The notes under the pieces are model-generated. The model was not told where the DNA came from, made no database searches, and was given only the letters and a program-made list of their open reading frames with translations. From contig NC_092678.1 of assembly GCF_964355755.1 (NCBI RefSeq), forward strand, positions 25,747,365 to 25,811,364: a stretch of 64,000 bases of DNA, given 5' to 3'. Below, piece by piece: positions 34,701-64,000 of this stretch. The translations under genes and the position numbers were made by a program. How positions within the stretch are numbered: position 1 is the first letter of the stretch; the number at the start of each line of letters is the position of its first letter. The stretch is from Antedon mediterranea. Taxonomy: Eukaryota > Animalia > Echinodermata.

Positions 34701-37700
34701 TTTAACTAATTTATATTCTGTTTTATCAAAAAGGAACTGACCCACTGGACATGACCGCACAAGTTACCAATCCTGATGGAAAAACGGAAGATGCAGAAAT
34801 CATTGATGGGTCAGACTGCCGCTACACTGTGCGATTTGTACCCGTAATGAAGGGAGTGCATACAATTAGTGTAAAACACAAAGGAATGCATGTTCCAGGT
34901 ACAAACAAAAAAAGAGAAAAAAAATTAGATGAAAAAACAAAACTGTGTTTCATTTCGTTTAATTTCTACTTTTCAAATGAATTTAAACGGTTTTAACATA
35001 AGTATACAATGTATATGGGTGGATATAGGTGACAGTAAGTTCATTCAATTTTAAGTCGTGGAAAATAATGTCATATTTTTCTGTTTTATTTGTAGGATCA
35101 CCTTTCCAATTCACGGTTGGTCCATTCGGAGAAGGAGGAGCACACAAAGTACATGCTGGAGGTCTAGGCCTAGAACGAGGTGAAGTAAATGTACCAGCTG
35201 AATTCACCGTGTGGACTCGTGAAGCAGGGCCTGGGTCATTAGGCATAGCAGTAGAAGGCCCAGCTAAGGCAGACATCAACTTTGTCGACAACAAAGATGG
35301 ATCGTGTCAAGTATCTTATCTACCTACCGAACAGGGTACGTTTCAAATAAAGATTTACATGTTGAATATTAAATCACTAAATGTATGCAAGAAGAGAATG
35401 AATACAGAATTTATCATGACACTTTTAATGACTTTTGTCTTATTTAAAATAAAACTTTTTTAACAAATTTCTTTTTTTTGCAGGTGAATACTTAGTTAAA
35501 ATTACATACAATGATGAACCAATCCCAGATAGCCCATTCAAACCTTATATTCAAGCAGCTCTTGGTGAGGCTAGAAGAGTCAGTGTTACCAGCTTACAGG
35601 TAAGAACACATTAAAGTTGCTAATTTCATGTAGTCTTGGTGAAGCCTAGTATATTCTATGTTATTTGTTTCTATAGAGTTACAATTTATAATACAGTATA
35701 TATTTCTTTTTTAGGAGACTGGATTGAAGGCTAACCAACCAGCTTCTTTTGCTATTCAATTAAATGGAGCAAAAGGAGAAATAAGTGCAAAGGTCGTGTC
35801 ACCCACCGGTACAGAGGAAGATTGTGTTATTTCAGAGATTGATAGAGGTAAGTAGACAAGTTTTTTCCGTACTTTGTGATTATCAGAGTTTTGATTGAAA
35901 GTGACTAAAATTAAAAAGATTATTTTTCATATATTTCCTTTCAGATTAAAAATGTATTTGATTGTTAAACTTTTTATTGCGATTAATTTCAGATAACTTT
36001 GCTGTGAGGTTTATGCCTCATGAGAATGGTATTCACATGATCTATGTTAGCTTCCGTGATCATCCGATTGCTGGAAGCCCATTCCGTGTGCGAGTGGGAA
36101 CACAAGATGAGGTCGGTGACCCTGGAATGGTCCATGCAACTGGAGATGGCCTAGAGAAAGGAAAGACTGGTAAGTGCATACATTGCACAGACTGGTAAGT
36201 GCATACATTGCACAGACTGGTAAGTGCATACATTGCACAGACTGGTAAGTGCATACATTGCACAGACTGGTAAGTGCATACATTGCACAGACTGGTAAGT
36301 GCGTACATTGCACAGACTGGTAAGTGCGTACATTGCACAGACTGGTAAGTGCGTACATTGCACAGACTGGTAAGTGCATACATTGCACAGACTGGTAAGT
36401 GCACACATTGCACAGACTGGTAAGTGCACACATTGCACAGACTGGTAAGTGCACACATTGCACAGACTGGTAAGTGCACACATTGCACAGACTGGTAAGT
36501 GCGCACATTGCACAGACTGGTAAGTGCGTACATTGCACAGACTGGTAAGTGCGTACATTGCACAGACTGGTAAGTGCGTACATTGCACAGACTGGTAAGT
36601 GCGTACATTGCACAGACTGGTAAGTGCGTACATTGCACAGACTGGTAAGTGCGTACATTGCACAGACTGGTAAGTGCGTACATTGCACAGACTGGTAAGT
36701 GCGTACATTGCACAGACTGGTAAGTGCGTACATTGCACAGACTGGTAAGTGCATACATTGCACAGACTGGTAAGTGCATACATTGCACAGACTGGTAAGT
36801 GCATACATTGCACAGACTGGTAAGTGCATACATTGCACAGACTGGTAAGTGCATACATTGCACAGACTGGTAAGTGCATACATTGCACAGACTGGTAAGT
36901 GCATACATTGCACAGACTGGTAAGTGCATACATTGCACAAACTGGTAAGTGCATACATTGCAAAGACTGGTAAGTGCATACATTGCACAGACTGGTAAGT
37001 GCATACATTGCACAGACTGGTAAGTGCATACATTGCATCAACATCTTAAAATGCTAATCACTCGTTTGTGTACCATTGCATTGCATGCAATGGTTTAAAT
37101 ATTGTAGTATACTGAATTTAAAATTGTCATTACAAAATTGGAAAAACATAATTATTCATCTACCTGTTTTATTACTCAGGTCAGCCATGTGAGTTTGTGG
37201 TCAACACGTGCGGAGCTGGCACCGGTATCCTCGCAATCTCTGTAGATGGACCGTCTAAAGTTAAATTGGAAGTCACCGAAGTAGCAGAGGGCTACAAATG
37301 TACCTATGTCCCAACAGCACCGGGAGACTACTTGATTTCGATTAAATTTGCGGGCGCCCATCATATTGTTGGTAGTCCTTACAAGGCTAGAATTATAGGT
37401 TTGTGGTTGATTGGCTTCATTCTACATATCTGTAATACTAATTTTGAGGATTATCTTCAAATCCTTTGATTGCTGTCTGTTTTTCATCGACCCTTGCTTT
37501 CTTTTTGTCACCGTCGCTTCCTCTTTTCGTCATTTTATTTCTCGTCTTCAAATGTTTCTTTTGATTGCTTTCTATACATTGTGGGTCTGTTTATGTGTTT
37601 TCATCTTTTCTTTCTTTCTGTATTCTCCATCTTGTTATTTGTATTCATTCAGGTTTGTATCATCTTTCTGTCTTCTCTTTAAATCGTTGCATGTACAATT

Positions 37701-41161: not shown

Positions 41162-44100
41162 ATGCAGGATCAGGTATGTTTTTAATTCATGTTATAATTT
41201 ATGAATAAAATTGTATTATTAATTGTATAACATTTATTTATTTGCTGTGTAAATTGTCTTTCAGTTACTTTAAGTTTTGTTGAAATAATTGTTTGCCAAT
41301 GTGTAGGGGAGTGTAAAAGAGAACAATGTTTTTCAAAAACGATTTTTAGAATAGAATAATACCATTGACGTCATGAAATGTTACAATTCAATATTTATTT
41401 ACTATATAAGTATTTGATAACATTCAAGCGTGACTTCATGTGTTACCCTGAATTTAGCAGTGGCTGGACAGATCGTAAACGTTGTGCCTTAGGCAAACTT
41501 TGCCATTTCCGCTCTGTTGATGGATGTGCCTATTCGGTCTCATCTAGCTTTTCCAAAATAGGGAGTTTTCAGAAATGTCTTAATTTAGTAGCCCTTACAG
41601 TATGTATTTGAACATTAGTTGATGTGTGTTTACTGTTGTAAATAATGATAGTATTATTATTGTGATATTCGTTGAATAAGTTCAAGTTTATGAGTATATA
41701 ACTCCTTGTTTAGTGTCATAAAATTTATTTAAATCATTGTATTTTACAAACATGTTTTACATTAGTTTAGGTATATGTATCTTTTTCATTACTAGACACT
41801 ATCGGATAACATAACATTTATTTTAGTCATTTTATTTTACAAAAATGTTTCATATTAAGTATGTATATCTTTGTTTTACTAGACGCTATCGGATAACAGC
41901 GATAGACATAGAACATGTATCCAACGTGATTTTTACCAAGAAGTCGACCTGACTGGAACGCACGAACCAACTGACGCGTTTGTTCCTATGTCCAGTAGTA
42001 TAAATGTATCAGTGCGTGACGCATTAGTAACGCAACAATCACATACAAGTAAGTTTATTGAATAGTATTGTATATTCAGTGAGTACGTTGCGTTTCAAAC
42101 GACCACAATGCGTTTCACTTTATTTGATCATGGTGACATTGTCAAGATATGATTGACATAGTGTGCATCCACTAAATGATAATCCAACATAAGATTGACA
42201 TAGAGTGTGCGTCCACTAAACGATAATTGTCTTGGTGTTGTCTCCTGTGTATTGTTCACATAGTTTATGTAAAAAGACAAACCGGAAGATGACGTAACTA
42301 CAGCTGACAACACCATGTTAGTTTTATTTTGTTTAGCTACATTGTTGTATATTATTGTTATTCTGTGTAACTTTAATTTTCATCAGAAAATGGCGAAAGA
42401 ATGAACGAAAATTCGTCACACAGGTCAACTAGTAAAGGTGAATTCAGAATGAGAGGTCGATATTCAAAGGGATTTGCAGACGATAAAAATAAGCGTTCGC
42501 GTACAACTTTCAACACAGCTCAAATCAACGCGCTTGAAATCATTTTCGAAGAGCAGCAGTATCCAGACCAGTCGCTGAGGGAGAAGATTGCTGAGAGATT
42601 AGGAATGGAAGAACACAAAATTGTGGTATGTATATACTAAAATCCTACTCTCTTAAGCGTAATGGGTTAGGTTAGGGGCAGCTGGATCATTTGAGTTACA
42701 GCGATACATTCTGCCCAGCATCTTTATGTTGTATTGTATGTTATTGTACATAGATGCTGGTCGAATAAATAAACATTCATTTGCATCATGCAATTCAACA
42801 TGCAATTCAACATGCCAGGCACTGACGTGTGTAAAACAATTTAGTTCAACAATATTATTTTCTGAAACTAACACATTTATATTTATTTAGATTTGGTTCC
42901 AGAATCGTAGAGCAAAGTACAAACGTAACAATCGGACGGATTGTCACAATGGCAATGTGAACGGGGCTATAGAACGACGACAGCGGGGTGAATTTGCCGA
43001 GAGTTTTAAACGACGAGGTATGCACCATCTGAATCCAAACGGAATGTAAGTATATAATTTAAAATAATTCTTTTTGTCAATTTAGAGATTTTGTTGGCTT
43101 AGTTACTTAGGCCTGTAGCTTACAATGCATGTCTGTATTGTATTAAAACATTTTGATTGACGTTCTAACACTTATTAATTATACAGGTACAATAATGTTC
43201 AACAAAACACATTCCAAGATAACACAATACACAGCTCATACCACAATGGTATCGTAACGGGAAGCGTGGTATCTTCAACACAAAAGATTGACGGTAATAA
43301 TGACGCTGTACGGAAAGCCTATCGGCTAGATATGGATGGTTTTAATTCGTCACCAGATCAAGTATCCTCCTCGGTAGACGTAGAAGAAGTAACTTCGTGT
43401 TTAAAACCAGATAAACCTCTTGTTCAGGAACCACCTCCGAATCAGATTTGTACAAATGCAGGCAGTCAGGATGAGATGAGACAAGCTTTGAATCAATGGC
43501 GAGCAAGGCAAAACATGGCTTTTTCACAGCCACCAAACCACTCAGCAATATTCAATTCGTTCTCGTCAAATGTATCGAGTTCAGTGCCATGCAACGTACC
43601 ACCAACTAATAAAACAACACATCAGTCTCAATCGGACGATATTATTTACGATGATACGTACTTAAGTTCTTCATCGTCCTCTGAAGATGAGGACGAACGG
43701 TATCCAAGTAAACTAGGAAATACTCAATTTACACACAACAATTTCCAAACGGTGCAGAGGCAATTTCCTACTTCGATTTCTAAGGAATCCAGAACATTTA
43801 GTCACGTCCCACTATTAGATCCGTCCAACCAGTTGTACCTTGATATACCGTCAGTCTCTAGTGGCGACATTTCATCCCCAGCCCCTCATTCCACCACAAG
43901 TACAGCGTCGTGGCCTTCTTCAAGTGAACTATCTTCTATTGATCCATTGTCTCCGAGCCAAATCTCGTCAGCGAGTCAGCTAGAGCAAGAAATGCCGCGC
44001 TGTAATATTCCACCAACGTTTTCAGACACGTGTACTGCGCCAACAATGAACCATCCATATGCGTCACATTCGTACGTGAACGATTTACAACCGTTAGAAA

Positions 44101-44921
44101 AACAAAACAAACTTATACAGAATAATCTACGACGGGTAAAAAGAGTTCGACAAGACCAAAGACAAGAATATCTTAAGATGAGTCAACAAAATATCAACCA
44201 ATATCATCCTTATCCTCAAAACACGAATTTTAGACAAGTAAATAAGTCTAAGGAACGCATGTTCGCAGAAGACGTCTTCACTCCAGGTGATTTTAATTCG
44301 TATCCGAATTGCAGCAATGTTCGTGCGCCATTCGAGTCTACCCCACAATCGTTTCATATTGGAAACGAACCGTATCAACAACAACAATTTATACGACAAC
44401 ATGCCGATAATAGGCAACAGAATCTAGAAAGCAGTGAATATCACCAAATGAAAAGTCAAAATGGAACTACCAAAAACGGAGAAAGAGAAAATGCTAGGCA
44501 ACAACAATACGTAGATAGAAATGGAAATTTAAATGGAAGTAGATTCGGTGAGTTGTATTCGACTCCACCACGTGATTCACCTGATTATATGGTTAAGCAA
44601 AAATCAATAAATGGAAATAATTCTTCTAACTTTCCCAAACCACTTGATCAACAACAAAATGGTAATGGGTTCATACAACCAGACTGGATGCACGTTCATG
44701 TTCCAATTCCTCCCAGGCGTAAAAAACACCCACAACCAATGAGAGAAGAGACTGGAGCAACATCGGGCGTCGTACATCACTATGGTAACGACTTAAATGT
44801 ACCATCGGTTTCTGATTTGTCACATAGTTTGGACGCTGACCAATCAGCTACTCTGAATCATGTTTTGGAATCTGTCGTCAAAGATATATTTCCGTTCTCA
44901 GACAATTTTATATCAATCTGA
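41162..44921 (+). CDS. Divergent PRD-class (Q50 paired-like) homeobox protein, about 768 aa, with a long S/Q/N/P-rich C-terminus
   Basis: Exons 41162-41173 (MQDQ), 41883-42048, 42387-42625, 42891-43045 and 43187-44921 splice in frame. Homeodomain KRSRTTFNTAQINALEIIFEEQQYPDQSLREKIAERLGMEEHKIV|IWFQNRRAKYKR has a phase-0 intron between residues 46 and 47, the PRD-class hallmark. The first two exons are less certain. Confidence 0.9.
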
Positions 44922-45765: not shown

Positions 45766-46208
45766 GTGAGTAACCATACATAGTTAATTTGACTACCTGC
45801 CATACCGTAATAGGCCAATTCTAGAGGTAGATAATTAATTAATAAAATGAAGCCAAGCAAGCAACCCAGACCTTGGCTTGCTTATTAATTTGCCTAGCCT
45901 AGGGCCAGGCCGCCTAGCCTACCATATTACCTACTTTAAACCGGCCTGACTGGCTGGTTGGCCGGTGTAGCCTAGACAACCCAGTGATAGGGCCTAGGCT
46001 AGGCCGTAGCTTGCTAAGTGTATGATGGTGGATGTAGGCCTGTAGGAATGGTATAGCCTAGCTAGGCCCTAGCCTAGCTAGGCCTACCCTAGTACTAGTA
46101 AGACTTTTCAATTAAGGAAAATTTGCCAACTGCTTATTAAGTAATTATAGGCCTAAATCGTTTTGAATTTTTTTAATTTACAACAGGTTAACAGGTTTAC
46201 TTTTAACG

Positions 46209-48266
46209 ATGGCCGAGAGTCAAAACGAATCAAGAAATAAATATAAAGTCTACCGGCCAAATCGCATGAAAGACTTGACAGTAACTGGTAGAGAAGGCAC
46301 AATTATTAAAAACTCTATTGAATGGGCTATAATCGACATGGAAAATGATGGTTGGGCATTTTTTAATTCAATAACAGTAAACAAAACATGTAAATTTAAT
46401 GTTGATAACGTAAGCGAATGTTTCCCAATCGGAACAAAGGTACGATTTAATGCCAGAATGTGGCTGGAACCAGAAGGTAGCACTTACACGGATCAGGATG
46501 TTCGAAGTTGTCGTTGGATAGTAAACTCGGTACGAACAAGTCTATTTGTACCGATACCTGTTATGCACAATAGTGCATTTAACTTTGACAGCTACAATGT
46601 TCCCCCTGAAATTTTGCCATCCGATAAAATCGGAGAAGCAGTAATAGGACTTATGAAACGTTTAAAATCTATCAATGGATTACCAATAACACAACTTTTA
46701 AAGACTTACACTAGTGAATTTTCAAACATTCCGGTTAATATACGAACAGTTTTAAGTAACGCTGATAAATTACGAATTCTTGTGCGATGTCTACCTAGAT
46801 ATTTTATACTAACTGATCATGATACAGTGTTAGCTTATAATTGCCGGGAAAAAGACGATGTGGACCTTGAAATAGGAAAATTGATACCCGTTGGATGGAG
46901 GCCTAACGAACCAATTACAGTGAATGTTGGACAAAACACTCATATAATTGAACATCCTACTGACTGTGCTGCCGTAGTTGAAGAAATTCTTGCAGGACCA
47001 AAGCCGATAACGATAGCGTTAGATTGTGAAGGCGAGTCCTTAGGTAGGCGGATCATCTTTTAAAAATGTATTTTCTCAAAGTGTAGTAGTGCGTTCAGTA
47101 TGACAAATACTAATTTTTATATATATATAACTTTTTTATTTATTATTTAGGTAAGACAGGGAAACTAACACTGCTGCAGATGTCTACTTCCACTGGTCAG
47201 GCATATCTAGTTGATGTGCTTGCCGTTCCAAATCCTACTACATTTTTTGCTGAAGGAGGTTTGAAAAAACTGCTAGAAAATCCCAATGTAATCAAGGTAT
47301 CTTAAAGTTATATATCGTGTTGTTATATATTAAAAATTAAACTGCTTGTTTACTGTATTGAGTGAGTGCATAATCTTGCCTTTAGCCTATTCGCAATCCC
47401 TCTTATTATTTTTTTATATATACTATTAATTATTCATTATTAGTATTATTCATTATTATGATAAAGTATCATTTGATAAAATTTAGTTAACTGCTGAGTA
47501 TTGGTTATTAGCAAGACATTTGATTTATTGTCTTTTCAAAGGTCATCCATGATTGTCGTGCTGACAATGCTGCCCTCTTCCACCAGTTTGCCGTCACTTT
47601 GTCAAATGTTTTTGACACGGCTGTAAGTAATGATATATTGGAAATACAAGATGTCCTACTGATAGTAAACTTATAAACAGTAGTTTTATTGAGGGTTGTC
47701 AACATGAATATCTCACAATGATGGTGTATTTATTAGGCTTTAAACCATAACACTGTATCTGCATATTTATACTACTGTATAGCAATATTTCTTGTTATCA
47801 TTATAGGTGGCTTATACAGTAATTATGGAACAGTGTCAAGCAAATCGCTCAAATGGAGGTAGTCTCGAACATTTGTGCGACCTTTTTTCAAAACCGCTTG
47901 TTACGAAAACTAAACAAATGAAAAAGAAAATGGCGTATGTTAAAGGATTCTGGAGCCGACGACCTATGACCCCCGAGATGATAAAATATGCAGCAGTTGA
48001 TGCGCTGTCGTTAGTTCCACATGTGTATGACAACATGAAAAGGTATATTTGTGTAATTATGATTAAAAGCTATACTCCGCCACATAATCACAAAGTTTGT
48101 GTGTTAATTATATTTTGCTGTGGGTTCGTAGAGGGCCTAATCCGATTTTTCTCAGTCCGGTATAAACACCTTTACCTTTCTTTTCTTTCTTTGCAGGTTG
48201 ATACATACAAGTTGGCAATCGCGTTATGATACGCTGATTACCGAAAAACTCCTGAAGAGGAAATGA
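46209..48266 (+). CDS. Egalitarian/EXD1-like DEDDy 3'-5' exonuclease, about 455 aa
   Basis: Exons 46209-47043, 47151-47296, 47542-47622, 47807-48042 and 48197-48266 are in frame. Motifs IALDCEG (ExoI), LTLLQ, KVIHDCRAD (ExoII), NVFDT, FWSRRPMTPEMIKYAAVD (ExoIII) are typical of the Egl/EXD1 family. Confidence 0.88.
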
Positions 48267-48981
48267 ACATTCAACTTGGCCAGTTAAAATATTATTTTAA
48301 TTTTAATACCACGAATTTGGCTACTGTATTTTATTAACGCTAAATGAACAAATTTTAAAAACTAGACTTGTAATTTAACATTTGAATATTCAACCAAAGA
48401 TGTGCTTTTTATTTGTAAATTTAGCTTTTAAACAAATATTTTAAACTTGATAAAATACAAATGCTAAGGTTTTTTTTGTCTGTAGATATTTATTATATTA
48501 TAATATATAATTAGTGAATATTAATTTATGGTGTAAATTTGATTTATCGTTATAATAAATAATTTCTTTTATATTTGATTCATTTCTGCACTGTTTCAAA
48601 TACACCATTCCATTTAATTGATTATAATTTGATAAATTCATTTGATTACGAGTATTCCATGATACTAAAAGTAGTGTTAGGGGAGTCTATTGTGTATTTT
48701 ATAGGATTTAACAATCAATTTTACTGACAACAGTCAAATATAATAAAGCTATCTGCTTTTCATATGATTTTCTCTTTTTTTAAATGAATGCCATTTCATC
48801 AAAGCATATTTTTTACACAAAAAAAACTGCAATACAATTAACACACCATATTTAATTTTATTCAGACATTTATATCTTTATTTTCAATCCGTAAAATAAC
48901 ATAAGTTTTAAATTCCATTATTGCTATTGCTTCTCGAACATGATTGTTATTTTGATTGATGTAACGTCTCTGGAAGACCTT

Positions 48982-50152
48982 TTATTTGAAAATACTATAC
49001 AGTATTGGCAATGTCAAAGCAAATGCGCCATAGATAAATACAACGGTTGATAGTGCACTCATTTTAACCTCCCATTCCAGTTTCTGCTCGGCATTTGCTA
49101 CTAATTCCTCAAAGCCATCTCTTCCACCTATAGACACATTTTTTCTTAGTGCTAACAATTCTTTAGTTATTGCAGCTTCTTGGTTCATCAATAAAGATTT
49201 TATCTCTTCCCTTTGTTTCAAAAGATTCTGTTCTTGCTCTTTTCGGGTTCCTTTAATGTCCGATGATCCGTTGCTAATGTCAAACGAATCCACAACTGCT
49301 TTCATTGATGCAACGTCATCTTTTAACCGATTCAAACTTTTAGAAGTTTCAGAATCAATGTCGGTAATACCGGTTATTTTCTTTAGTTCGCGTCGCCATC
49401 GCCAATTCACAATACTAGTTCCAATGACGCCGATACACGTCCCTATAAGAGAAAACATTAAAGACCAGTATTTCACCCGATCTTCTTGCATCTGTTGTTT
49501 TTCTTTACTTTCACGAAATGCCGCAGAGAAGGCATCTAGAGCATCTCTTTCTTTAATGTCGACTTGATTCCACCAGTCTTTCACTTTTTTCTCAATTTGT
49601 AACAGTTGATGTTCTTCAGTGGCAATTTCCAGAAACCTAGGATCATCTCGTGGCGTTCTGTCCAACTTTCGACGTATATCTTTTAATTTGGCTTGTATTT
49701 CGTTTACTTCAATGTTAGCATTTTTGACATGACTCCTTGCTTCAATGTAATAATTTTCTGCCTGTAAATAAAAAAAACAATGAAACGGTTGATTAAATAA
49801 TTGTTAATCCATTCTCCCATCCAGTAATATTATGCTGAATATACTAATTAAATAATGTGTGGGCACAGAGGCCAGTTTACACTATACTATTATCTATGTC
49901 ACATCTTGCACACATACTTACCTCACTGACTTTTTCCTGAGATGCTTTGACTTCTCTGATTCCCATAAAATTTTCGTAAGCAGCAATAATTCGAGAAATG
50001 CGACCACCCGAGTCTAGGGCCTTTTCTAGTTGCACGACTGTAAATGATTTAGGCTTTGGTTTGACAGAGGTAAACATAAGTTTCTTCAAATCTAGTCTTC
50101 TCGACATTTTTGTTGTTGATGTGTCGATCGGTGGTCTGCTAAATAAATTCAT
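48982..50152 (-). CDS. CCDC51: Coiled-coil domain-containing protein 51 (mitochondrial potassium channel MITOK) homologue, about 336 aa
   Basis: Two exons, 50152-49922 and 49761-48982 (phase 0). Contains LDRTPRDDPRFLEIATEEH...FSAAFRESKEK...KYWSLMFSLIGTCIGVIGTSIVN and a C-terminal TM helix, as in CCDC51. Confidence 0.9.
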
Positions 50153-50645
50153 TCATTCCCAAACCAAAATATTGAGGGCGGTTTCTTTTACTAACGGACG
50201 TTTTTATTGGTTTAGCTGATCATTATCTTATTAAAACCACCAATCAGAAAACAGTACTCATACATGCTGAGTTATGAAGATAACATGGCTGCGCCCATTA
50301 TTAATGAAAATCCAGAATTATAGCCAAATACAGTTGATAAACGAACGGAAACAATAAAATAAGACATCGGTATTAAATCGAATAACTTCATGTTTTAGGT
50401 ATTATAACTATAATAACGATTTATGAAACGGAAATATGAATTACGTAATAATTATTATTATCAACGTATGGTCCCTGACCCTGCTGTGTTGTGTGTGGCG
50501 GCGCTGCAACAAAAACAAACATGAGTAAGAGAGAGCTAGGCCTAGCTTAATTTTTAGTGTATACTGTATGTTCCCAAATATAATTTTATATAATAGGCTT
50601 AGTCCTAGAGAGAAATAAAATGCAGTAATTATTACTATATTCCAG
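50153..50645. promoter_or_regulatory. Bidirectional promoter region of CCDC51 and the RCC1-repeat gene
   Basis: Divergent starts (50152 on - and 50943 on +); CCAAT boxes (attgg near 50206, ccaatcag near 50240); YY1-like aacatggctgc near 50282; probable non-coding exon donor cag|gtatgt at 50645/50646. Confidence 0.65.
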
Positions 50646-50942
50646 GTATGTTGTAAATCTGTGTTTACATTTTAATTCAGCTCTTGGAAATAATTAAATT
50701 TAAAAAGACAACAAACAAAGAAGTCAATTATCTATTGATAATTTGTGAGTGAGAGAGATGATGAAATGTGATTTTGTATTTTGTCTCTTTTCATATTGAT
50801 TTGTTGTGATTTTAGTGTATAGTGCATTGAGATGTAATGTGCTATATAATAATAAATTAAATAATTTAATTATTTTAATTGCTTAAAATGAATTTACTGA
50901 ATTTTAATTTGATTAAAGTACCCAGACTCTAAAACTGAAATC

Positions 50943-53900
50943 ATGTCTGGTTATGACCTTTTTGAAGTTGCATCCTTATTAAGAATTGAAGACAGTACTA
51001 TAAGATTGTCAGCCTTTCACCAAAATGATGTTTCTACGACAACGCTATTGGTATGTAAAAATGGTAAGTGACGCTTCGCACCCATTCAACAATCCGCTCT
51101 TAAACCAGATATGAACACTTTTCTTAGTACTCTTCTTAAGAATGCTTCTAATTCAAAATTTTAAACAAAATACAAAAAGGTCACCTGTATTCAAATTAAG
51201 TTTGCCGTATATAAAGCAGCGTCCTCAATGACACAAAATTCCATTACTTAATTGTTATTTAAACTTTAATCTAACTCCTTCAGGTTATCTTCTTGTTCGA
51301 TTTCATCTTTATGGACACAGCCCAGTTGTTAAACAAATTCCATGGTATGAAGTAAGTATATATTTAAAAAATTTTTTTGTTTTTAAAAGATGTTTATTAT
51401 TTTAAAATGTGCATTGAATACTGGAGAACAACCAATGTCTGAGACAGACATCATGGGTCAACCTCCCCTCCCCCAGTACCTCTTACTTCCACCTCACCAA
51501 TTCCATCAAATCAACTCAGCTTCCACCACCGTATCTTTTCCCTGAAATATGCCCCCAAAATGTCTCCTAACAACTTGACCCTACCTTATTTCTAAAACAC
51601 CAATTAAATTAATTAACATTAATATAGTAAAAGGATTTATTACTGCATTGTATTTTGAATGTACTGTGGTACTGGTTGATAATGCCTGTAATTTGTCAAT
51701 ATTATTTCTTTAAATTAGAACCCAAAGAAGGATATAATCTGTGCTACAATTGATCCAAGTGGAGAGTGGGGTTTGTTAGCATGTGCTGATAAGTCTCTCA
51801 ACATCCTGCCGTTAAGATCATTCTTTAAGTTCACGCCCACCACAACTTTTCTCTGGAAAACTCGGGATGTGACTGAAATCACACCGCAACATCAAAAAGG
51901 TATAGAAAACATTTTAAAAATTATATAAAATTATGCTTATTAATATTGTTGTTTTCCTCTATTTTGTGATTGATTCATAGTCACAGACTATTTCCAATCT
52001 TATAAGTTTAATATTATAAGGTTGGTTGATATAACACTAAAACTATTAAATGTTTCTTTATGTAGGAATTTTTGTAGGAATACCAACAGCTTTAGTTTGG
52101 TGGTCTCCTTCCGAGTTGGTTGATATAACACTAAAACTAGTAAATGTTTCTTTTTGTAGGAATACCAACAGCTTTAGTTTGGTGGTCTCCTTCCGAGTTG
52201 GTTGATATAACACTAAAACTATTAAGTGTTTCTTTTTGTAGGAATACCAACAGCTTTAGTTTGGTGGTCTCCTTCCGAGTTGGTTGATATAACACTAAAA
52301 CTATTAAGTGTTTCTTTTTGTAGGAATACCAACAGCTTTAGTTTGGTGGTCTCCTTCCGAGTTGGTTGATATAACACTAAAACTATTAAGTGTTTCTTTT
52401 TGTAGGAATACCAACAGCTTTAGTTTGGTGGTCTCCTTCCGAGTTGGTTGATATAACACTAAAACTATTAAGTGTTTCTTTTTGTAGGAATACCAACAGC
52501 TTTAGTTTGGTGGTCTCCTTCCGAGTTGGTTGATATAACACTAAAACTATTAAGTGTTTCTTTTTGTAGGAATACCAACAGCTTTAGTTTGGTTGCCTCC
52601 TTCCGAGTTGGTTGATATAACACTAAAACTATTAAATGTTTCTTTTTGTAGGAATACCAACAGCTTTAGTTTGGTGGTCTCCTTCCGAGTTGGTTGATAT
52701 AACACTAAAACTACTAAATGTTTCTTTTTGTAGGAATACCAACAGCTTTAGTTTGGTTGCCTCCTTCCGAGTTGGTTGATATAACACAAACTATTAAGTG
52801 TTTCTTTTTGTAGGAATACCAACAGCTTTAGTTTGGTTGCCTCCTTCCGAGTTGGTTGATATAACACTAAAACTATTAAGTGTTTCTTTTTGTAGGAATA
52901 CCAACAGCTTCAGTTTGGTGGTCTCCTTCCGAGTTGGTTGATATAACACTAAAACTAGTAAATGTTTCTTTTTGTAGGAATACCAACAGCTTTAGTTAGG
53001 TTGCCTCCTTCCGAGTTGGTTGATATAACACTAAAACTATTAAATGTTTCTTTTTGTAGGAATACCAACAGCTTTAGTTTGGTTGCCTCCTTCCGAGTTG
53101 GTTGATATAACACTAAAACTATTAAGTGTTTCTTTTTGTAGGAATACCAACAGCTTTAGTTTGGTGGTCTCCTTCCGAGTTGGTTGATATAACACTAAAA
53201 CTAGTAAATGTTTCTTTTTGTAGGAATACCAACAGCTTTAGTTTGGTGGTCTCCGTCCGAGAATAAACATATTTGTATTGTTGGAACAAATGTAAGTTAT
53301 TTATTTGAATAATAAGTTTAATCTTAATAATGAAATTCCAATTTTGAAGCAAACTCTTTTCTCTGTTTGTAATTGGAACTAAAAAGCTAAGCCTCAATGC
53401 ATCAAACCATGAAGCTATCTAAATTATAGCTCCATGATCAAACAGTGAATGCAAAGTGATGTGAACCAAAGCTTTAAGCGATAGTCTACAATTCTTTTAT
53501 ATATTTCAAGAAGCATTTTTAAGTATGTAACTGAATGTTTTTGTTATAGGCGGGTGAGATTGTGTTTGTTGATCTCTGTCTTCAACGTGACGTACGATCT
53601 GTTAGGATTAACAAGGATATTACAAACTTAAATATGGTGGAGGATTCATGCGGTCGCGTTACCTACCTTATTGTAAGTTAATTTTAGAAATTATGTGATT
53701 ATTTTTTTTTTTTTTTATGTCCATGTACAAAAATCATACATTACTTGCCAAATTGTTAATTCCCCTCATTAAAGCCCCTCATTTACAGTATACTGGTACC
53801 CTGGTACCCTGCATATGTATAAAACTAAACTGTATAAATATGACAGTACGTACAGTGTATACAGGAATAGGACGCCTTCACTGTGTAATTTATTTGTAAC

Positions 53901-56900
53901 CTTGTAAGAATCATTGTTGTAGATCCATACTAAATCGGGTCAGCCATGGAAACAGCTTCTAACGAGTGTTGGACATGTTGATGGTTCATCGTCAAGTACA
54001 ACTCTACACAATCTGGGATTTGAATATGTCGTGCGAGATTCTTTACCATCTCACAATATTTTACATGATGGTAAGTAATAGATAAGATTATGCAGGGGTG
54101 GATTCAAGGGGGTGCTCAGGCCGACCCATGCCCCCTCTAAATTTTGCAATTTGTAATGCAAAAGGTAGGACATCAAATTAAGCTTGGGCCTGTATTTCAC
54201 TACTTTTAGGCCCTGGTCCCCCTATTTCAAAATCCTGGATCTGCCACTGTTATGTCCTTTATGAACTTAGTGAGATCCAAGTTCACTGCCACTCAAGTAC
54301 AGTGTTGATACTAGCAGTCAATAGGCAATTCCTTTGATTCTTGTTTGTTTGATAGAAGAAGGTTCTGAACAGTTTAAACCTAAAGAGTTTCAGCAATTTA
54401 CTTCAAGTACCCTTCTTGACTGTCAGAATGCACGTGGAGGAAAGAAGCTTGTCACGTCCTACAACAAACAATCACGCATTTACAAGGTATGTTGTTAATT
54501 TCTTTAAAATCACTTGTTTTCGTTGCGTTTTGTTTAGCATTTAAAGTTTGTACCCGTTGCTTTGTTTATATTAAAATGAAATAAATGTATTTATATTTAG
54601 GACACTTGCACTGATGAAGGGCTAAGGTGTTGCCCGAAAGCTCTGCAAATTTTTCTGTGTGTTTTACTTTATTGTTTTGATTTAGCTGTTTGCTTATTTT
54701 ATTCTGTATCTCCATTGAGATCCAGCCACTGATACCTACAGCACAGTAATTTGATTTATCTTTTAGGTGTTTGACAGTAATATTGATAATTGGCTGCCAT
54801 TGTTTGTGTATCGACTGCCAGAAAGCTACGGTCATATTGTGCACACAAGCCGTTTGATGTTTGCTGTGTCGCACATCAATGATAAAGTAAGTACCTCTGT
54901 CTACACTATCAAACTTTATGTGATGTGCCCATATATAGACATGATGACGTCACATCACTACCATATTTGGGCACATCACACTTTTTTGTCAAACTAGTTT
55001 GATAGTGTAGACAGAGTTTAACAATGTTTCTCATGTACAAGCAATTGTTGATACTTACATTTGTATTAAAATTAAATTATTTTCAGACTGTATTAAACAT
55101 GTTGTCCACACAACTGCTTGAGGGATCGTCACACTCATATTTCGATCAAGATGCAATTCTCCAAACCTTTAGCTTCCATGGCAACCAGAGTGTTGTTGGT
55201 ATATATTCATGTAACAGCAATACTTCTTCACAAAATTCAGAATCGGAAATGTATGTACTAAATATATATAAAATGTTTGTCTAAATAGTGTTTTTTATTT
55301 TGCTTTTAATTTCAATTTTTAATTTTGTCTTTTTATATTTCTCTAGCAAACCTGATACAAAAGAAAAGAAAAAAGTGCAACTTCCTGAGAGTTGCATTGT
55401 GGTTACAAATAAAGGAGTCTATCACTGCCGACCAAGGTAAAACTACAATGACCATTGGCTACTCTGTACAAGTAAACATGAATAAACTACAATGACCATT
55501 GGCTACTCTGTACAAGTAAACATGAATAAACTACAATGACCATTGGCTACTCTGTACAAGTAAACATGAATAAACTACAATGACCATTGGCTACTCTGTA
55601 CAAGTAAACATGAATAAACTACAATGACCATTGGCTACTCTGTACAAGTAAACATGAATAAACTATTAACTTATTAACATCATGAATTGACTGCTTATTA
55701 TTTGTCTTTTTACAGGGTTATTCCTGAGGAATTATTTTTACAGCTAGTTTTGGACAATCTAGGCACTCTAGAATCAGCAGACAAGCTTGGCTTCATTCTT
55801 GGGTTGGATGTGAACCTGCTATATGAAAAAGCTGCCGATAAACGTCTGGCTGATGGAAACTACCAGCAAGCAATGAAACTATACAATATGTCAAAGGTAT
55901 TTTGAAATTAATATCTTACTTAAATGTAGGTTTTGCATTGCTTTAAACAAATGTCATGTATGTTTTTTAGTGTTCTAACAAATGTCATGTATGTTTTGCA
56001 GTGTCCTAACATGCAGCGTGTGACCCGCTTTGCTCAGTATGGCTGCATACACGAGGTCCTTGAACACTGCTTTGCAGCTTTGAGTAAACCAAAACAGCTG
56101 CAATGGGTTGAACGGAGGCAACTTGCTGATTTACTTATCAAATGCTCTGTTCATGAGTTGTTGCAGGGCAAGTTTGAGAATACTTTGAATAAGCTAAGGT
56201 GAGTTGATGTTTTCTGATAAAGTAAAATATACAGGTTTACTGTATAGTGGTATCATGATTAAGTTTGAGAACGAAATCTATAATATGTTTTTTTATTTGT
56301 TTTTAGACACTTTCTCAGTAGTAACTCTGACTACGATGAAGTTGCAACTCTTCGCTTATTATCAGATACTGGAATGCACACTTTGCTCGTTGAAGTAGCA
56401 AAGGTAAGTACCAAAACATCTACATGTACGCAAATAAAGTATGCTAAGTTAATGCTTTACTCATTTACATATTATTTCTATTCAGATGCGTGGATTGTTA
56501 CCATATGCAGTTGAGCTTCTCGTTGAACGAGGGCATTCTAACGGTGGTGCACTCAACTATGACCAGCTTGCCAATCAAGGGTTGTTTCATACACTTACAT
56601 CAATCAAAGAGGGCGTCCTTCTTCGATTGCTTACCACACAGGAACTTCTTAGCACGATTCTTGGCAAGGTAAATGTTTTTAATCATCGTCTACTTCATGC
56701 CTAGCTTACCTGGATAAACCGACAATAGCCCTTTTTCCTAGAAGAGCAAAATATAACTAAAAAAGTACACCCCTCTCTCTCTCAAACTACAATCCCTGAC
56801 TGTTTTTTATGTTCCTCTTGCAGCCAGACCTTGCCACCAGCTATCTATCATTGGTGATGCCTTGCCTGGACCAATTAGATCAGGTTAGACTTCTGCAACT

Positions 56901-59900
56901 AGCATGTATGCTTGATCCGTCTAAGGCCTCTATACACATGCTCCTCTCAACAGCCAATGACTTCTTCAAAAGACAAAGGTAATTGTATTCTGTGTTGTAT
57001 TAAGTTTACTGATTGTCAGAAAAGTAGCGTACTCAGCGGCCACATATGTAGCCACAAGTATTCATTATTAAGTACGTTTATTGATTTGTGAGAAAAGTAC
57101 ATTACTCAATATGGTTTGGTCATTGCCAAAAAAAAGGAGAACAATCCCCTGTGTGAGACAGAGCTGGCAAGACCTTTGTAAAAACCTTACTAACCAACTG
57201 CTGGCTATGGCCCTTTACAAAAACATGCAAAGATAAATACAAAACTGTGTTTTCTTATTTGTCAGGTCTGCTTCAACTTCATCAATGAGTTCTCAGGGAA
57301 GCTTAACAAGTGAATCAAACACACAGGTATTGTACTACCCTTAGTTTTGATAGGCATTATTTAACATGTTAAAATAGTAAATAGGGATGTTAATGCTTTT
57401 TTCATGTTTTTATTTTTAATACACTATAGGATGATGTGCTTGTTTTGTCTAGAAAATCTCTGATCCATAATTTTCTACGAGTCTTGTTGGTCCTGAATTA
57501 TAAAAGGCGTGAAGGATCCAGGTGAGGGTTTGTTTACTGTTGATTTATTTTCGTTTTCGGGCCTATAATGTTTAAATATGCATCAATGTACAGTAGACAA
57601 TGTAGCCCATCAGAACTGCTATTAAGAGATGCCATGTTAACAATAATTACCATATGGTGACAACCAGTAAGTAACTGCTATTAGGAGATGCCATGTTAAC
57701 AATAATTACCATATGGTGACAACCAGTAAGTAACTGCTATTAGGAGATGCCATGTTAACAATAATTACCATATGGTGACAACCAGTAAGTAACTGCTATT
57801 AGGAGATGCCATGTTAACAATAATTACCATATGGTGACAACCAGTAAGTAACTGCTATTAGGAGATGCCATGTTAACAATAATTACCATATGGTGACAAC
57901 CAGTAAGTAACTGCTATTAGGAGATGCCATGTTAACAATAATTACCATATGGTGACAACCAGTAAGTAACTGCTATTAGGAGATGCCATGTTAACAATAA
58001 TTACCATATGGTGACAACCAGTAAGTAACTGCTATTAGGAGATGCCATGTTAACAATAATTACCATATGGTGACAACCAGTAAGTAACTGCTATTAGGAG
58101 ATGCCATGTTAACAATAATTACCATATGGTGACAACCAGTAAGTAACTGCTATTAGGAGATGCCATGTTAACAATAATTACCATATGGTGACAACCAGTA
58201 AGTAACTGCTATTAGGAGATGCCATGTTAACAATAATTACCATATGGTGACAACCAGTAAGTAACTGCTATTAGGAGATGCCATATTAACAATAATTACC
58301 ATATGGTGACAACCAGTAAGTAAATAATTTTGGTCTCAAAATACTTAGAAGACCCATATTAAAAGTGACTGAAAATGCCTATTTTGACCTTTGACCATAA
58401 ACTTGAATTATCTCAATATCTCACTATTAATATTATATTTATTAATGTACATTAGGCTGTATAGCTCAGCAGAAGTACTTTTAGAAGAGGAGGCAGCAGC
58501 AAGCCAGTATGTAGCCTCTACGCAGCCTACAGCAAATTGGCAACCTGTTAGTAAGCTACTGGCAAGTGGTCAGGCACACTCTGCTGCTGTGGTTGGTGAA
58601 CAACTCTATGCATGGGGCCTAGATGAACATGGAAGGTATGTTTCCACTAACTGATTTCATAAATTATATATTATATAATGCTACTAGATGAACATGGAAG
58701 GTATGTTTTCACTAACTGATTTCATAAATTATACTGTATATTATATAATGCTACTAGATGAACATGGAAGGTACGTCTGCACTATCTGATTTCATAAATT
58801 ATATATTATATAATGTTACTAGATGAACATGGAAGATATGTTTTCACTAACTGATTTCATAAATTATACTGTATATTATATAATGTTACTAGATGAACAT
58901 GGAAGGTATGTTTTCACTAACTGATTTCATAAATTATATATTATATAATGTTATTTAACATAATTATATGCATCTTTATGTCTTGTCATGTTGTATATTT
59001 TTTAGGGTCCCTAATGATCAGCTTCGGCTGGATGGGTCACCCTTTTAAAATATTGTTGAAATAAAATAAACATAAAGATCAATCCTTGAATCTTAATGGT
59101 ATACTGTTATATAGTCTTTTACAATGATTTGTTGATGTGTTTTCAGGTTAGGAATGGGAAACACACAGCAAAATACGTTAACAAATCCACAATGCATACA
59201 AAGTCTACCATACAGAGTTGTGGCCGTTTCCTGTGGCAAACATCACACCATGGCATTGACGGACCATGGGGTAAGTTTATACATGTTTAATATACCGGTA
59301 CTTGATTGTATGCTTATGCTGCAATGCCTGGTGGTATATCTTAAGTTGATAATTTGTGCTTAAACTTAGTGTTGGTTTTTTTTATTAACTATGTTTAATT
59401 GTTTTACATGAAGGTGTTTAGTTGGGGTTCATCTCAATTTGGCCAGATAGGTCATGGTAACCGTGTGACATGTACAAGGCCAACGTTGGTGGCAGCATTA
59501 CAACATGAACTGTGTGTTAGCATCACTTGTGGCCAATACCATTCCTTAGCGTTGTCTTCTGATGAAAGGTAAGAGCAACATATTTTTTCACAAGCATGTT
59601 TTGAAGCCAAGCCAAGCGCTTTGTCAATACTGTATACTTATCATATTTTACTAATAATTAAGAAATCATTAAACTCACATTTATTCAAAATGGAAAATAG
59701 CAAAAAAATTAATTGTCAAATAAAGAACACAGAACATTTAATGTACATTTTCAGGGTTTACAGTTGGGGTTGGGGTGTACATGGTCAACTGGGATCTGGA
59801 CACATTGAAGATCGTTTGACCCCACAGCCGATATATGACCTGGATGACCATGGTGTGACCGTCATTGCTGCTGGTTACTGTCACAGCAGCGTGTTGGACC

Positions 59901-62383
59901 GTGACGGCCGTGTGTGGGTGTTTGGTAATGGGTCATTTGGTCAGCTGGGTCGTGCAATCACTAAAGTTATTCGTCCAATTGAACTGACCGCTTTGAGTAG
60001 GGAGAGAGTCCGGTTACTAGCGTCAGGAAGATTTCATATGGTGAGTTACTAAACAAAATTTTACATATTTATTATAATAATAGTATCTATTAATACATTT
60101 TTGTATCTTAAATTTAAACTGTACTGGTTCAGGTAACTGTCTACATAGAGACATCTAGTAGCCATTGACATCAAGTTGCCATTTAGATTAATGCTACAGT
60201 ACATTTAAGTATTTGTTTTTTCTTTGAGAGTGACATACCACAGACATTGCAATAAATTTGCAATATAAGTTTGATTATTAAAATGAAATTTTTTTTTAGG
60301 TTGCTGTTACTAGGACAGGAAAAGTATGTACCTGGGGAAGTGACCCTCAAAGCCTACGGCAAGTGATGCAGTTTTCACGCCGAAATCATCGTTCCAAGGG
60401 TAAAGCAGGTCCTTGTGTTATGGACACCAGTTACACATTTCCCAGACTTGTCGAATGTCCTAAAAGTGTACACTTTCAACAGGTAAGTACTGTACACAAA
60501 CTTAGCTTTCCATCGTAACAATATTAAATAAGAAAGCTGTACATTATTAATGAAAATGTCTCGCTATTCTCAGTTGGAATGTGGACAGAATCACTGTCTA
60601 ATGGTCACTTCAGCTGGTCAGTTGTATGTATGGGGTAGAAATGATAGTGGACAGTTGGGATTAGGACATAAATATGACCAGGTACATTTTTATTTATTAT
60701 CTTGTTTTATTTATTATAAATCATCTTACAGAAAGGTTGACTAACTCCACTTCCAAAGGTAATAATGCTTTGTTTATGTAGAGCATCTTGTGTATATGTT
60801 TTTGAACAAGATTGCTACCTTTAAAAATGATAGTAAATGAATTCGCTTATGGTTATCTTTGGCAATGTGCCTAACTTGAGAAGGTACATAAATTGTATTT
60901 TAATAATTGTTTTGTAATTGATAATAGTTTTCTTGTCCTTTAATTTAGCGTTCTCCGCAACAAGTTGTCAGTCTTTTTGACAAATACATCGTCGCAGTCA
61001 GCGCAGGTCAAGGATTCTCTGTTGCTATAGACAAACATGGACTTATTTTTGCATGGGGTTCTAATGACATACAACAGGTAAAACTGACCTTTTATTCATT
61101 TTACTGTATTATACCAGGATGGCCTGTCAGTCACAAAGACTAGTCCCAAAAGCAGTGGAGTAATGCACAGGGCAAAGGCCTCTGGTTTAGCACTTCTAAG
61201 GGGCCCTCCCAGGCTGGGTAGTTGCATTGCACTGCTCATGCTCTGGGGCCCTTTGAGCTCTGGGGATCCTGGGTTTAGCCAGTGAGAATTACGCCACATA
61301 CATTGTGTATGAAATTCTGAAAATGAAATAGATGGTAAATACCATCTTGACAGTTTCGTTCCTTTCACGAACAACTTCTTCATTCTTAATTACAAATCAG
61401 ATGAACATTTACAATCAACCTCATACATTGGTTGTCCACACTATCAAACTAGTTTGACAAAAAAATGTGATGCACCCAAATATGGTAGTAATATGACATC
61501 ACATAAAGTTTGTTAGTGTAGACAGAGCTTTAATAAAATAACTGATTTAGAAAATACATTTGGCGAATACAATGTTTGCACTTTCAGCTTGGTGTGAACC
61601 GGCAAGATGGGTCAAGTCCAAAGGGTATCACAGAAGCGTTTGTAAACATCCGCATCAGTAAGACCGCTCATTCCGGTGCCTGGGACGTTTTGCTTCCTAT
61701 CACTGTTCCTGGAATTCCAGTAATTCCAACGGCAGTAAATGATTGGATGACAGAAAGATCATGTGACAAAGAGGAGAATGATGATACAGAAGATACAACA
61801 TTTGTAAAATACATAAATTATCGTTTTGTAGTCTTAATACGTAAAAATGTTAGTTTTAAAATGTAAACATTGTAGTGAAGCTATAGCTTGCCATCCACTC
61901 CCAAGGTCCTGGGTTCAATAGCACAATAACTTATAAAATAGTTTATCCATCCTGTAATTGGCAAATTTGTGCTCGCTGTTGAATGCGTATGAAATAAATA
62001 AAAATATATATATAATTTGCAGAAAATATTACAGTTTTCATTTGTTTCATTACAACCCTCAATATAACCTTTCATTTTTGGTTTTTTGGTCAGATTTCCA
62101 ATGTAGACATTGCGCCTGAGATACCACCACTTTCTGGGAATGTCAAAACCGGTCCCCTTTATGGTCCACCATCTTTGTGTTTGACGCTGGAAAAACTGAG
62201 CGACTCATACGATCATAAACAGATTCTACAGGAATGTATAGATTGGGAATTTTGGCAAGGTGCTGCGATGATCAACGAAGCTGACCTCCGACATCCTCAA
62301 GCTTTGTATTATCAGTTATTAGTAATTCAGAGAGAAGGGGTAACCCAACAAGGTGTACACAAAGCATGTAATAAGTACATACG
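50943..62383 (+). CDS. Large protein with an N-terminal beta-propeller-like region, helical middle and RCC1 repeats (claret/GLO-4-like putative Rab GEF); continues beyond the window
   Basis: In-phase exons 50943-51063, 51284-51351, 51719-51899, 53224-53291, 53550-53672, 53923-54070, 54356-54486, 54767-54886, 55087-55250, 55347-55436, 55716-55896, 56002-56198, 56307-56403, 56486-56668, 56824-56978, 57266-57326, 57430-57521, 58456-58635, 59147-59270, 59414-59568, 59755-60040, 60300-60482, 60574-60681, 60949-61077, 61588-61803, 62094-62383. RCC1 motifs VSCGKHHTMAL, VYSWGWGVHGQLG, VWGRNDSGQLGLG. The claret assignment is inferred from architecture. Confidence 0.85.
52020..53261 (+). repeat. 82-bp minisatellite, 15 copies, each containing a 3' splice site and the exon start
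   Basis: tttctttttgtAG|gaataccaacagctttagtttgg recurs with exon-start positions 52078, 52160 ... 53142, 53224; the last copy is the real exon. Confidence 0.98.
54093..54249. mobile_element. MITE with CAG...CTG ends and a 5-bp TSD
   Basis: caggggtggattcaag ... cctggatctgccactg imperfect TIRs; TTATG directly repeated at 54088-54092 and 54250-54254. Confidence 0.75.
54893..55018. mobile_element. MITE family A inserted immediately after a splice donor
   Basis: ctctgtctacactatcaaact ... agtttgatagtgtagacagag; begins directly after GTAAGT at 54887. Confidence 0.85.
55440..55665. repeat. 44-bp minisatellite, 5 copies, starting 3 nt into an intron
   Basis: Unit aaactacaatgaccattggctactctgtacaagtaaacatgaat; donor GT at 55437. 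Confidence 0.95.
57614..58321. repeat. 59-bp minisatellite, 12 copies
   Basis: Unit aactgctattaggagatgccatgttaacaataattaccatatggtgacaaccagtaagt. Confidence 0.97.
58619..58952 (+). repeat. 65/70-bp minisatellite, 5 copies, containing the exon end and 5' splice site
   Basis: ctagatgaacatggaag|gtatg with GT at 58636, 58701, 58771 and 58906, and a mutated AT at 58836. Confidence 0.95.
61153..61297. mobile_element. Degenerate GC-rich MITE
   Basis: gtggagtaat ... attacgccac inverted ends and internal ggggccc motifs in an AT-rich intron. Confidence 0.45.
61433..61529. mobile_element. MITE family A, internally deleted
   Basis: tgtccacactatcaaact ... gtgtagacagagct+TTA. Confidence 0.75.
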
Positions 62384-62431: not shown

Positions 62432-64000
62432 TGCACATACATTTGTATTCACATACTGTCCTGTGAATTAAAAGTATTTAGCACATACATTTGAATGCAC
62501 ATACTGTCCTGTGAATTAACAGTATTTAGCACATACATTTGTATGCACATACTGTCCTGTGAATTAACAGTATTTAGCACATACATTTGAATGCACATAC
62601 TGTCCTGTGAATTAACAGTATTTAGCACATACATTTGTATGCACATACTGTCCTGTGAATTAACAGTATTTAGCACATACATTTGAATGCACATACTGTC
62701 CTGTGAATTAAAAGTATTTAGCACATACATTTGAATGCACATACTGTCCTGTGAATTAACAGTATTTAGCACATACATTTGTATGCACATACTGTCCTGT
62801 CAATTAACAGTATTTAGCACATACATTTGTATGCACATACTGTCCTGTGAATTAACAGTATTTAGTACATACATTTGTATGCACATACTGTCCTGTGAAT
62901 TAACAGTATTTAGCACATACATTTGTATGCACATACTGTCCTGTGAATTAACAGTATTTAGCACATACATTTGTATGCACATACTGTCCTGTGAATTAAC
63001 AGTATTTAGCACATACATTTGTATGCACATACTGTCCTGTGAATTAACAGTATTTAGCACATACATTTGTATGCACATACTGTCCTGTGAATTAACAGTA
63101 TTTAGCACATACATTTGAATGCACATACTGTCCTGTGAATTAACAGTATTTAGCACATACATTTGTATGCACATACTGTCCTGTGAATTAACAGTATTTA
63201 GCACATACATTTGTATGCACATACTGTCCTGTGAATTAACAGTATTTAGCACATACATTTGTATGCACATACTGTCCTGTGAATTAACAGTATTTAGCAC
63301 ATACATTTGTATGCACATACTGTCCTGTGATTTAACAGTATTTAGCACATACATTTGTATGCACATACTGTCCTGTCAATTAACAGTATTTAGTACATAC
63401 ATTTGTATGCACATACTGTCCTGTGAATTAACAGTATTTAGCACATACATTTGTATGCACATACTGTCCTGTGAATTAACAGTATTTAGCACATACATTT
63501 GTATGCACATACTGTCCTGTGAATTAACAGTATTTAGCACATACATTTGTATGCACATACTGTCCTGTCAATTAACAGTATTTAGCACATACATTTGTAT
63601 GCACATACTGTCCTGTGAATTAAAAGTATTTAGCACATACATTTGTATGCACATACTGTCCTGTGAATTAACAGTATTTAGCACATACATTTGTATGCAC
63701 ATACTGTCCTGTGAATTAACAGTATTTAGCACATACATTTGTATGCACATACTGTCCTGTGAATTAACAGTATTTAGCACATACATTTGAATGCACATAC
63801 TGTCCTGTGAATTAACAGTATTTAGCACATACATTTGTATGCACATACTGTCCTGTGAATTAACAGTATTTAGCACATACATTTGAATGCACATACTGTC
63901 CTGTGAATTAACAGTATTTAGCACATACATTTGTATGCACATACTGTCCTGTGAATTAACAGTATTTAGCACATACATTTGAATGCACATACTGTCCTGT
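62432..64000. repeat. 48-bp minisatellite, more than 32 copies, running off the window end
   Basis: Unit gcacatactgtcctgtgaattaacagtatttagcacatacatttgtat. Confidence 0.98.

Follow-up and report, generated by a model that had tools for sequence, protein, structure and literature searches.

An acceptor-type mirage minisatellite at the intron 3/exon 4 boundary of a claret/GLO-4-like gene in the crinoid Antedon mediterranea

In the forward strand of the window, i.e. the whole stretch of 64,000 nt that was analysed, a unit of 82 nt is repeated 15 times head to tail (52021-53261) ahead of exon 4 of a claret-like RCC1 gene (Table 1). The array is an acceptor-type "mirage" minisatellite, a class that has already been described and that is now extended to a crinoid. 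Most probably it represents a tolerated neutral repeat of the intron 3/exon 4 boundary which arose as a by-product of repeat instability, with its 14 spare acceptors likely leaving together with the intron. Based on the reading frame, the conservation of the encoded peptide and the database model we infer that the last copy (copy 15) is the one used.

Table 1. Coordinates of the host gene, the array and the candidate exons in the window
Feature	Coordinates	Strand	Evidence
Host gene, first 26 coding exons, runs past the window; claret/GLO-4-like, RCC1-like domain, P0001	50943..62384	+	exact exon chain, Pfam RCC1/WD40_RLD, Atlas cluster
Exon 3, 181 nt, ends in phase 1, donor AAG/GTATAG	51719..51899	+	exon chain; spliced joints in X1
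Intron 3, 1324 nt; 166 nt minus the 14 extra units	51900..53223	+	
Minisatellite, 15 units of ~82 nt	52021..53261	+	TRF, unit listing, junction contig in DNA run X4
Decoy acceptors of units 1-14; reading any of them on to the real donor meets a stop	52021..53178	+	
Authentic intron end and acceptor (unit 15)	53179..53223	+	
Exon 4, 68 nt (GIPTALVWWSPSENKHICIVGTN), unique G at 53255, donor AAT/GTAAGT with 10.6 bits	53224..53291	+	
Candidate in-frame pseudo-exon, 62 nt, ends at CTA/GTAAAT	52078..52139	+	sequence
Candidate in-frame pseudo-exon, second, 62 nt	52896..52957	+	sequence
Candidate in-frame pseudo-exon, third, 62 nt; donor 20 nt before the real acceptor	53142..53203	+	sequence

The host gene was recognised by means of P0001, a database protein of 1525 aa with the source label Antedon mediterranea that matched the upstream exon at 100% (one of six candidates). 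A chain of 26 exons starting at 50943 reproduces P0001 exactly as far as the window extends and places exon 4 at 53224-53291; P0001 is a gene model, and its use of the last copy is a model's choice. The initial annotation had likewise taken the distal copy to be the real exon, and it is indeed the sole copy that yields the conserved protein. The exons of the host gene range from 61 to 286 nt and its introns (n = 25) from 82 to 1324 nt, intron 3 being the longest. At 61801-61809 the P0001 model needs the donor TTT/GTAAAA, which with -1.1 bits in the leave-one-out scoring is very weak.

P0001 contains RCC1 repeats (Pfam RCC1/WD40_RLD), and full-length homologues were detected in hemichordates, amphioxus, cnidarians and molluscs (nine matches including P0001 itself, from 5006 candidates). 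The Atlas cluster closest to P0001 bears the name "uncharacterized protein Ca" (score 0.98), in which we take "Ca" to stand for the Drosophila protein Claret. RCC1 domains and cluster name together point to a claret/GLO-4-like gene with a putative orthology to Claret. Claret is introduced as a putative Rab GEF related to GLO-4 in the excerpt of PMC4806438. Elsewhere in the window, a homeodomain gene (Pfam PF00046) with a long last exon is located at 42449-44920, and at least two more genes, recognised by eye at 46189-48266 (+) and about 48900-50110 (-), are packed close between it and the claret-like gene.

The initial annotation had described 15 near-identical 3' splice sites in series, and this was confirmed by TRF, which returned a period of 82, 14.6 copies, 97% matches and a score of 2211. 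The units start at 52021, 52115 and so on up to 53179 (n = 15); 13 of them comprise 82 nt, unit 1 comprises 94 nt and unit 10 comprises 80 nt. An internal 12-nt duplication in unit 1 creates an additional, 16th AG at 52064-52065, which was absent from the earlier description, as was the CTA/GTAAAT donor discussed below (a slash marks the splice site). Each unit consists of 45 nt of intron end, with a branch-like CACTAA, a T-tract and TAG, and of 37 nt of exon start; the earlier division into 44 and 38 nt is just as valid since one junction G is common to both parts. The TAG is retained in all 15 units, and the 15 acceptors (TAG/GAATACC) define exon starts from 52078 to 53224.

Within the repeat, the sole marker unique to the real exon is a G at 53255 (exon nt 32), which in copy 15 is followed by ...GAATAAAC, whereas the decoys carry a T followed by ...GTTGGTTG. 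Only the last 30 nt of exon 4 (53262-53291) are located outside the repeat. Units 2 and 12 share their intron part letter for letter with unit 15 (53179-53223). The tggttgcc variant is found in 5 of the 15 units (7, 9, 10, 12 and 13). The two exon variants are thus interspersed, as had been claimed, but they sort reads into classes and not to single copies, as 5 of the 13 regular (82-nt) units are identical. A search with the 14-mers of the unit gave zero matches outside the array in the 64-kb window, and within the window nothing supports the idea that the unit is of dispersed or mobile origin.

The mean divergence among the units amounts to 3.0%, with 7 variable columns of 82 and interleaved variants, which fits a young array that would still be turning over and would be free of coding constraint. 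The latter is suggested by changes in the decoys that break residues kept in the homologues. The exon-4 peptide is located within a conserved stretch W...I-I/V-G-T...GE, the second half of which is present in copy 15 only. In the alignment of eight of the nine matches (P0007 was left out) all eight proteins have W at the second position, and 5 of the 14 decoys show a change of WW to WL or RL.

Sequencing data from four runs cover parts of the locus. X1 is not recorded as RNA and was taken as such because its contigs behave as spliced; its sample differs from that of the DNA runs X2-X4, and its animal may carry another allele. X2-X4 come from one sample, which is possibly the assembly's own source. 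Three GT-AG joints in X1 agree with the gene model. One of them (record 3) connects 51899 to an array acceptor; the exon portion of this contig belongs to the tggtgg class and matches without any difference as far as exon nt 28, where the contig ends, so that it is compatible with 9 of the 15 copies. The initial annotation had named constitutive skipping of the exon as a possible objection, and the joint of exon 3 to an array acceptor speaks against such skipping. With regard to its proposal to follow junction reads from exon 3 to each acceptor, X1 thus provides a joined array acceptor, while nine copies fit it equally. Contigs drop rare forms, and coverage holes (in X1 past exon nt 28 and in the intron part of unit 1, in X2-X4 at 50900-52015) were not counted as evidence as the filter omits records.

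Two further X1 contigs deserve mention. The first runs from exon 2 into intron 2 (51322-51509) with a depth of 4.3 compared with 9.1 for the spliced form and represents intron retention, pre-mRNA or DNA. In the second (record 1), 97 nt ahead of 50917 form a loose end, the letters of which match near 50614-50643 by eye; this suggests a putative non-coding upstream exon in that place.

An assembly artefact or a wrong copy number appears hardly credible. The public DNA run X4 contains a 65-nt contig which crosses from the exon part of one unit to the intron part of the following one and thereby carries the head-to-tail junction. Furthermore, the units bear distinct, interleaved variants, and in X2-X4 the depth of the repeat contigs is 5.8-9.9 times that of a long contig taken as the single-copy distal flank, where nine assembly copies match the repeat contigs and depth is not copy number. 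An artefact would be favoured by the DNA runs sharing one sample that may be the assembly's source, and by the fact that none of the reads seen covers the array from end to end.

Splice sites were scored with weight matrices derived from the host gene's own sites, donors being scored leave-one-out. All 15 acceptors fall within 6.9-10.1 bits and the real one reaches 9.1 bits, so that the upstream acceptors are equally strong, as previously stated. Only the last acceptor gives an open frame as far as the real donor. When read to the donor at 53292, all 14 upstream acceptors meet a stop within 78-126 nt. The earlier statement that a TGA is met within two units therefore holds with respect to the stops but not to their kind, the first stop being TGA in 11 cases, TAG in two and TAA in one. 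Likewise, upstream use is unproductive with the real donor, but for three decoys a weak donor would offer an in-frame partner.

RNA structure was considered as a discriminator among the copies and rejected. The predicted accessibility of the T-tract and AG is 0.00-0.02 in all 15 copies, and the units fold no better than shuffled sequences with RNA parameters (z 0.10 to -1.12 in 4 of 4); with DNA parameters z was -2.28 in one of four and -0.92 to 0.92 in the others. Given equal acceptor scores and the same predicted structure, the choice must stem from the downstream context, which on the sequence evidence would comprise the donor at 53292, a strong one at 10.6 bits, together with the 30 unduplicated exon nt.

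The initial annotation had considered the array to be at odds with first-AG scanning and in agreement with exon definition. Scanning for AG starts from the branch point, and as each unit has its own branch-like site, the array does not contradict it. Exon definition by size is insufficient to single out copy 15, since copies 14 and 13 together with the real donor would define exons of 150 and 232 nt, which are within the range of 61-286 nt of this gene. Exon definition presumably has to be complemented by a preference for the nearest site or by enhancers within the part of the exon that was not duplicated. The weak donor GA/GTTGGT, which had been proposed to define 37-nt pseudo-exons separated by 45-nt mini-introns, was rejected on donor score and intron size: it scores -4.2 bits compared with -1.1 to 13.4 bits for the 25 real donors, and a 45-nt intron would be shorter than the shortest intron of the host gene (82 nt, n = 25).

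A tolerated neutral repeat would have originated from a single 82-nt tandem duplication with 1-nt microhomology at the junction, followed by unequal exchange or slippage leading to expansion and to the shuffling of variants. Copy 15 would be chosen as the acceptor nearest to the strong donor at 53292 and the sole one followed by the last 30 nt of the exon. Leaky use of other copies would introduce a premature stop as early as exon 4, in a gene with more than 26 exons, and the transcripts would be cleared by nonsense-mediated decay; the leak is predicted to be low and greatest at copy 14. Both nonsense-mediated decay and nearest-site choice are presumed here on general grounds. This reading is supported by an anatomy that matches that of the amphioxus globin gene BflGb6, by the silent donors of human F7 IVS7 and by the array-rich region (28 TRF rows in 64 kb). 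On the other side, the X1 joint fits 9 of the 15 copies and does not fix the copy used, copies 13 and 14 would likewise yield exons of acceptable size, and none of the 15 AGs has been lost, although no loss would be expected when 7 of 82 columns vary.

The array might instead act as an expression rheostat, in which the decoys divert part of the transcripts to stop-containing forms and the copy number tunes the claret-like protein via nonsense-mediated decay. We regard this as unlikely. The 14 decoys score like the real acceptor and all reach a stop with the real donor, copies 13 and 14 define exons of normal size, and an X1 contig break exactly 30 nt after the shared AG would fit a second path entering there. 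However, this second path may be unspliced RNA, as X1 also has the contig in intron 2, and no read-through into the array occurs among the three X1 records, which weighs little as contigs drop rare forms. Furthermore, the array is young at 3.0% divergence, and the excerpts of PMC3087553 and PMC3902484 report mirages without aberrant mRNA.

A donor CTA/GTAAAT (5.0 bits) is present in units 2, 12 and 15, and acceptors 1, 11 and 14 combined with it would define 62-nt exons which keep the reading frame open between exon 3 and exon 5 (joined at 53550). The extra AG of unit 1 and the same donor would give a 74-nt exon which is also open to exon 5. These decoys might thus represent a nascent alternative exon that replaces exon 4 in frame; the swap would end in LVDITLKL instead of the NKHICIVGTN of exon 4, with a frameshift if both were included. 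Such a role seems very improbable. The open frame is offered by 3 of the 14 decoys and by the extra AG, and the donor nearly reaches the lower end of the typical real donors (5.1 and 5.2 bits), one real donor even scoring -1.1 bits. However, 18 of the 304 non-annotated GTs in 5133 intronic nt of the gene score at least 5.0 bits, which makes the weak donor an ordinary one, and the real donor is far stronger with 10.6 bits. As such sites are commonplace and the product would lose the conserved I-I/V-G-T strand, we place little weight on the 62-nt exons predicted from the letters of the DNA.

Both ideas can be combined into a copy-number-tunable splicing switch at its birth, in which the decoys would send a real share of the transcripts to decay and three in-frame 62-nt exons would be mutually exclusive with exon 4 by frame; we consider this combination distinctly improbable. 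A tandem exon duplication or a cluster of mutually exclusive exons in the usual sense was rejected as the units hold 37 of the 68 exon nt and are devoid of the real donor, the junction donor scoring -4.2 bits; a frame-compatible, weak donor is available to only 3 of the 14 decoys.

Besides the main array, three further arrays, two in the host gene and one in a gene with filamin repeats, extend across splice sites, and both donor and acceptor types occur among them. At 36164-37037, after the Filamin-repeat exon 35993-36169, a donor-type mirage consists of 35 units of 25 nt, each with CTG/GTAAGT; its first copy opens the frame into the exon at 37180, and the units also read CAG-ACTG-GTAAGT. In the host gene, a donor-type mirage at 58619-58953 has five exon-end copies, of which the first is the real donor and four retain the GT. 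An older, degenerate acceptor-type repeat with a period of 31 nt (55924-56011) precedes the exon at 56002, and a decoy AG before 55971 scores 7.6 bits compared with 7.7 bits for the real acceptor of this exon.

Other arrays are intronic. The units of a 59-nt array with 12 copies (57614-58323) end in CCA/GTAAGT, the first after CAG, and resemble a 53-nt frame-shifting mini-exon; with an acceptor of -1.4 and a donor of 4.0 bits this is probably due to chance. The arrays at 55440-55665 (44 nt, 5 copies) and 62433-64000 (48 nt, 33 copies or more) begin 3 nt and about 48 nt past a donor, respectively, without spanning it.

An enrichment of arrays at exon boundaries of the host gene was not supported: 3 of its 6 arrays span a boundary compared with 2.4 expected (P = 0.455), under a null of random placement outside wholly exonic sequence that is limited to these six arrays and ignores selection. 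Thus, no special targeting of boundaries is needed, and boundary-spanning arrays are to be expected since the introns of the host gene are short.

The crinoid array shares several properties of the mirages described in amphioxus. Its unit spans the exon-intron boundary of a real gene, has 82 nt with 97% matches (the excerpt of PMC3087553 gives a range of 10-160 bp) and keeps the splice signals (TAG in 15 of 15, 6.9-10.1 bits). On comparison of the unit sequences, concerted turnover is indicated by the five identical units among the 13 regular ones and by edge copies outside the homogenisation, namely unit 15 with its G at 53255 and unit 1 with its 12-nt duplication. According to the excerpt of PMC3087553 (Ebner et al. 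2010), the amphioxus globin gene BflGb6 contains "mirages", tandem copies of an intron 3' end and the 5' part of the exon, with three and six units in two haplotypes, and RT-PCR suggested normal splicing. Further amphioxus mirages are named in the excerpts of PMC3087553 and PMC3902484 for BflGb9, Adh3, troponin C and PGBD5, and those of Adh and troponin C yield no aberrant mRNA (excerpt of PMC3902484).

As far as these excerpts go, the two systems agree in the tandem arrangement of intron 3' end and exon 5' part, in the kept splice signals, in a unit length within 10-160 bp and in an authentic edge copy that differs from the homogenised inner ones. In contrast to the amphioxus cases in these excerpts, the host is a crinoid and not a cephalochordate, 15 units are present compared with 3-6 in BflGb6, all copies keep the AG and a weak donor compatible in frame is available to three decoys. 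The amphioxus mirages in the excerpts are known to be unstable in length, whereas the crinoid array is known from one assembly. A report of a mirage in a crinoid or an echinoderm was not found in the literature searched, the coverage of which was partial.

Tandem duplications of globin splice sites were reportedly engineered by Reed and Maniatis in 1986. In such constructs one study found the proximal copy to be used and a similar study the opposite (discussion of PMC1557585, excerpt). As there, identical acceptors compete in the crinoid gene; unlike the constructs as far as they are covered by that excerpt, the crinoid array is natural, has 15 copies and its decoys carry only 37 nt of exon. 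The excerpts of PMC8724738 and PMC2115697 do not describe duplicated-acceptor experiments.

On the donor side, the human F7 IVS7 37-bp VNTR contains repeated donors that are functional but normally silent (excerpt of PMC1557585). In both systems, the edge unit spans the exon-intron boundary and thereby creates identical pseudo-sites, and according to the excerpt those of F7 are silent and the copy adjoining the intact exon is used. In contrast, F7 involves 5-9 donor sites examined by mutagenesis in that excerpt, and in the crinoid it is the acceptor side that is repeated and the last copy that is predicted to be used.

A new exon or intron could arise from splice signals and pieces of exon that have been duplicated. 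Such intron gain by tandem duplication is said to be the core of the Rogers model. A mirage version of this model is given in the legend of Fig. 7 of PMC3087553 (excerpt). Unlike in the model, the duplicated exon part has no usable AG/GT proto-splice site in the real exon, and with a junction donor of -4.2 bits there is no sign of a new intron.

A test of 3' splice-site choice on a natural acceptor array was not found in the literature searched; the donor-side counterpart of such a test has already been carried out with F7 (excerpt of PMC1557585). The 15 near-identical, tagged acceptors of the crinoid gene provide a natural substrate for the question of 3' splice-site choice, i.e. of proximity to the downstream donor as opposed to exon enhancers. 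If the improbable splicing switch were true, a mirage repeat would be turning into an alternative-exon cassette, and if the decoys were used at regulated levels, repeat copy number would act on gene dosage and exon birth.
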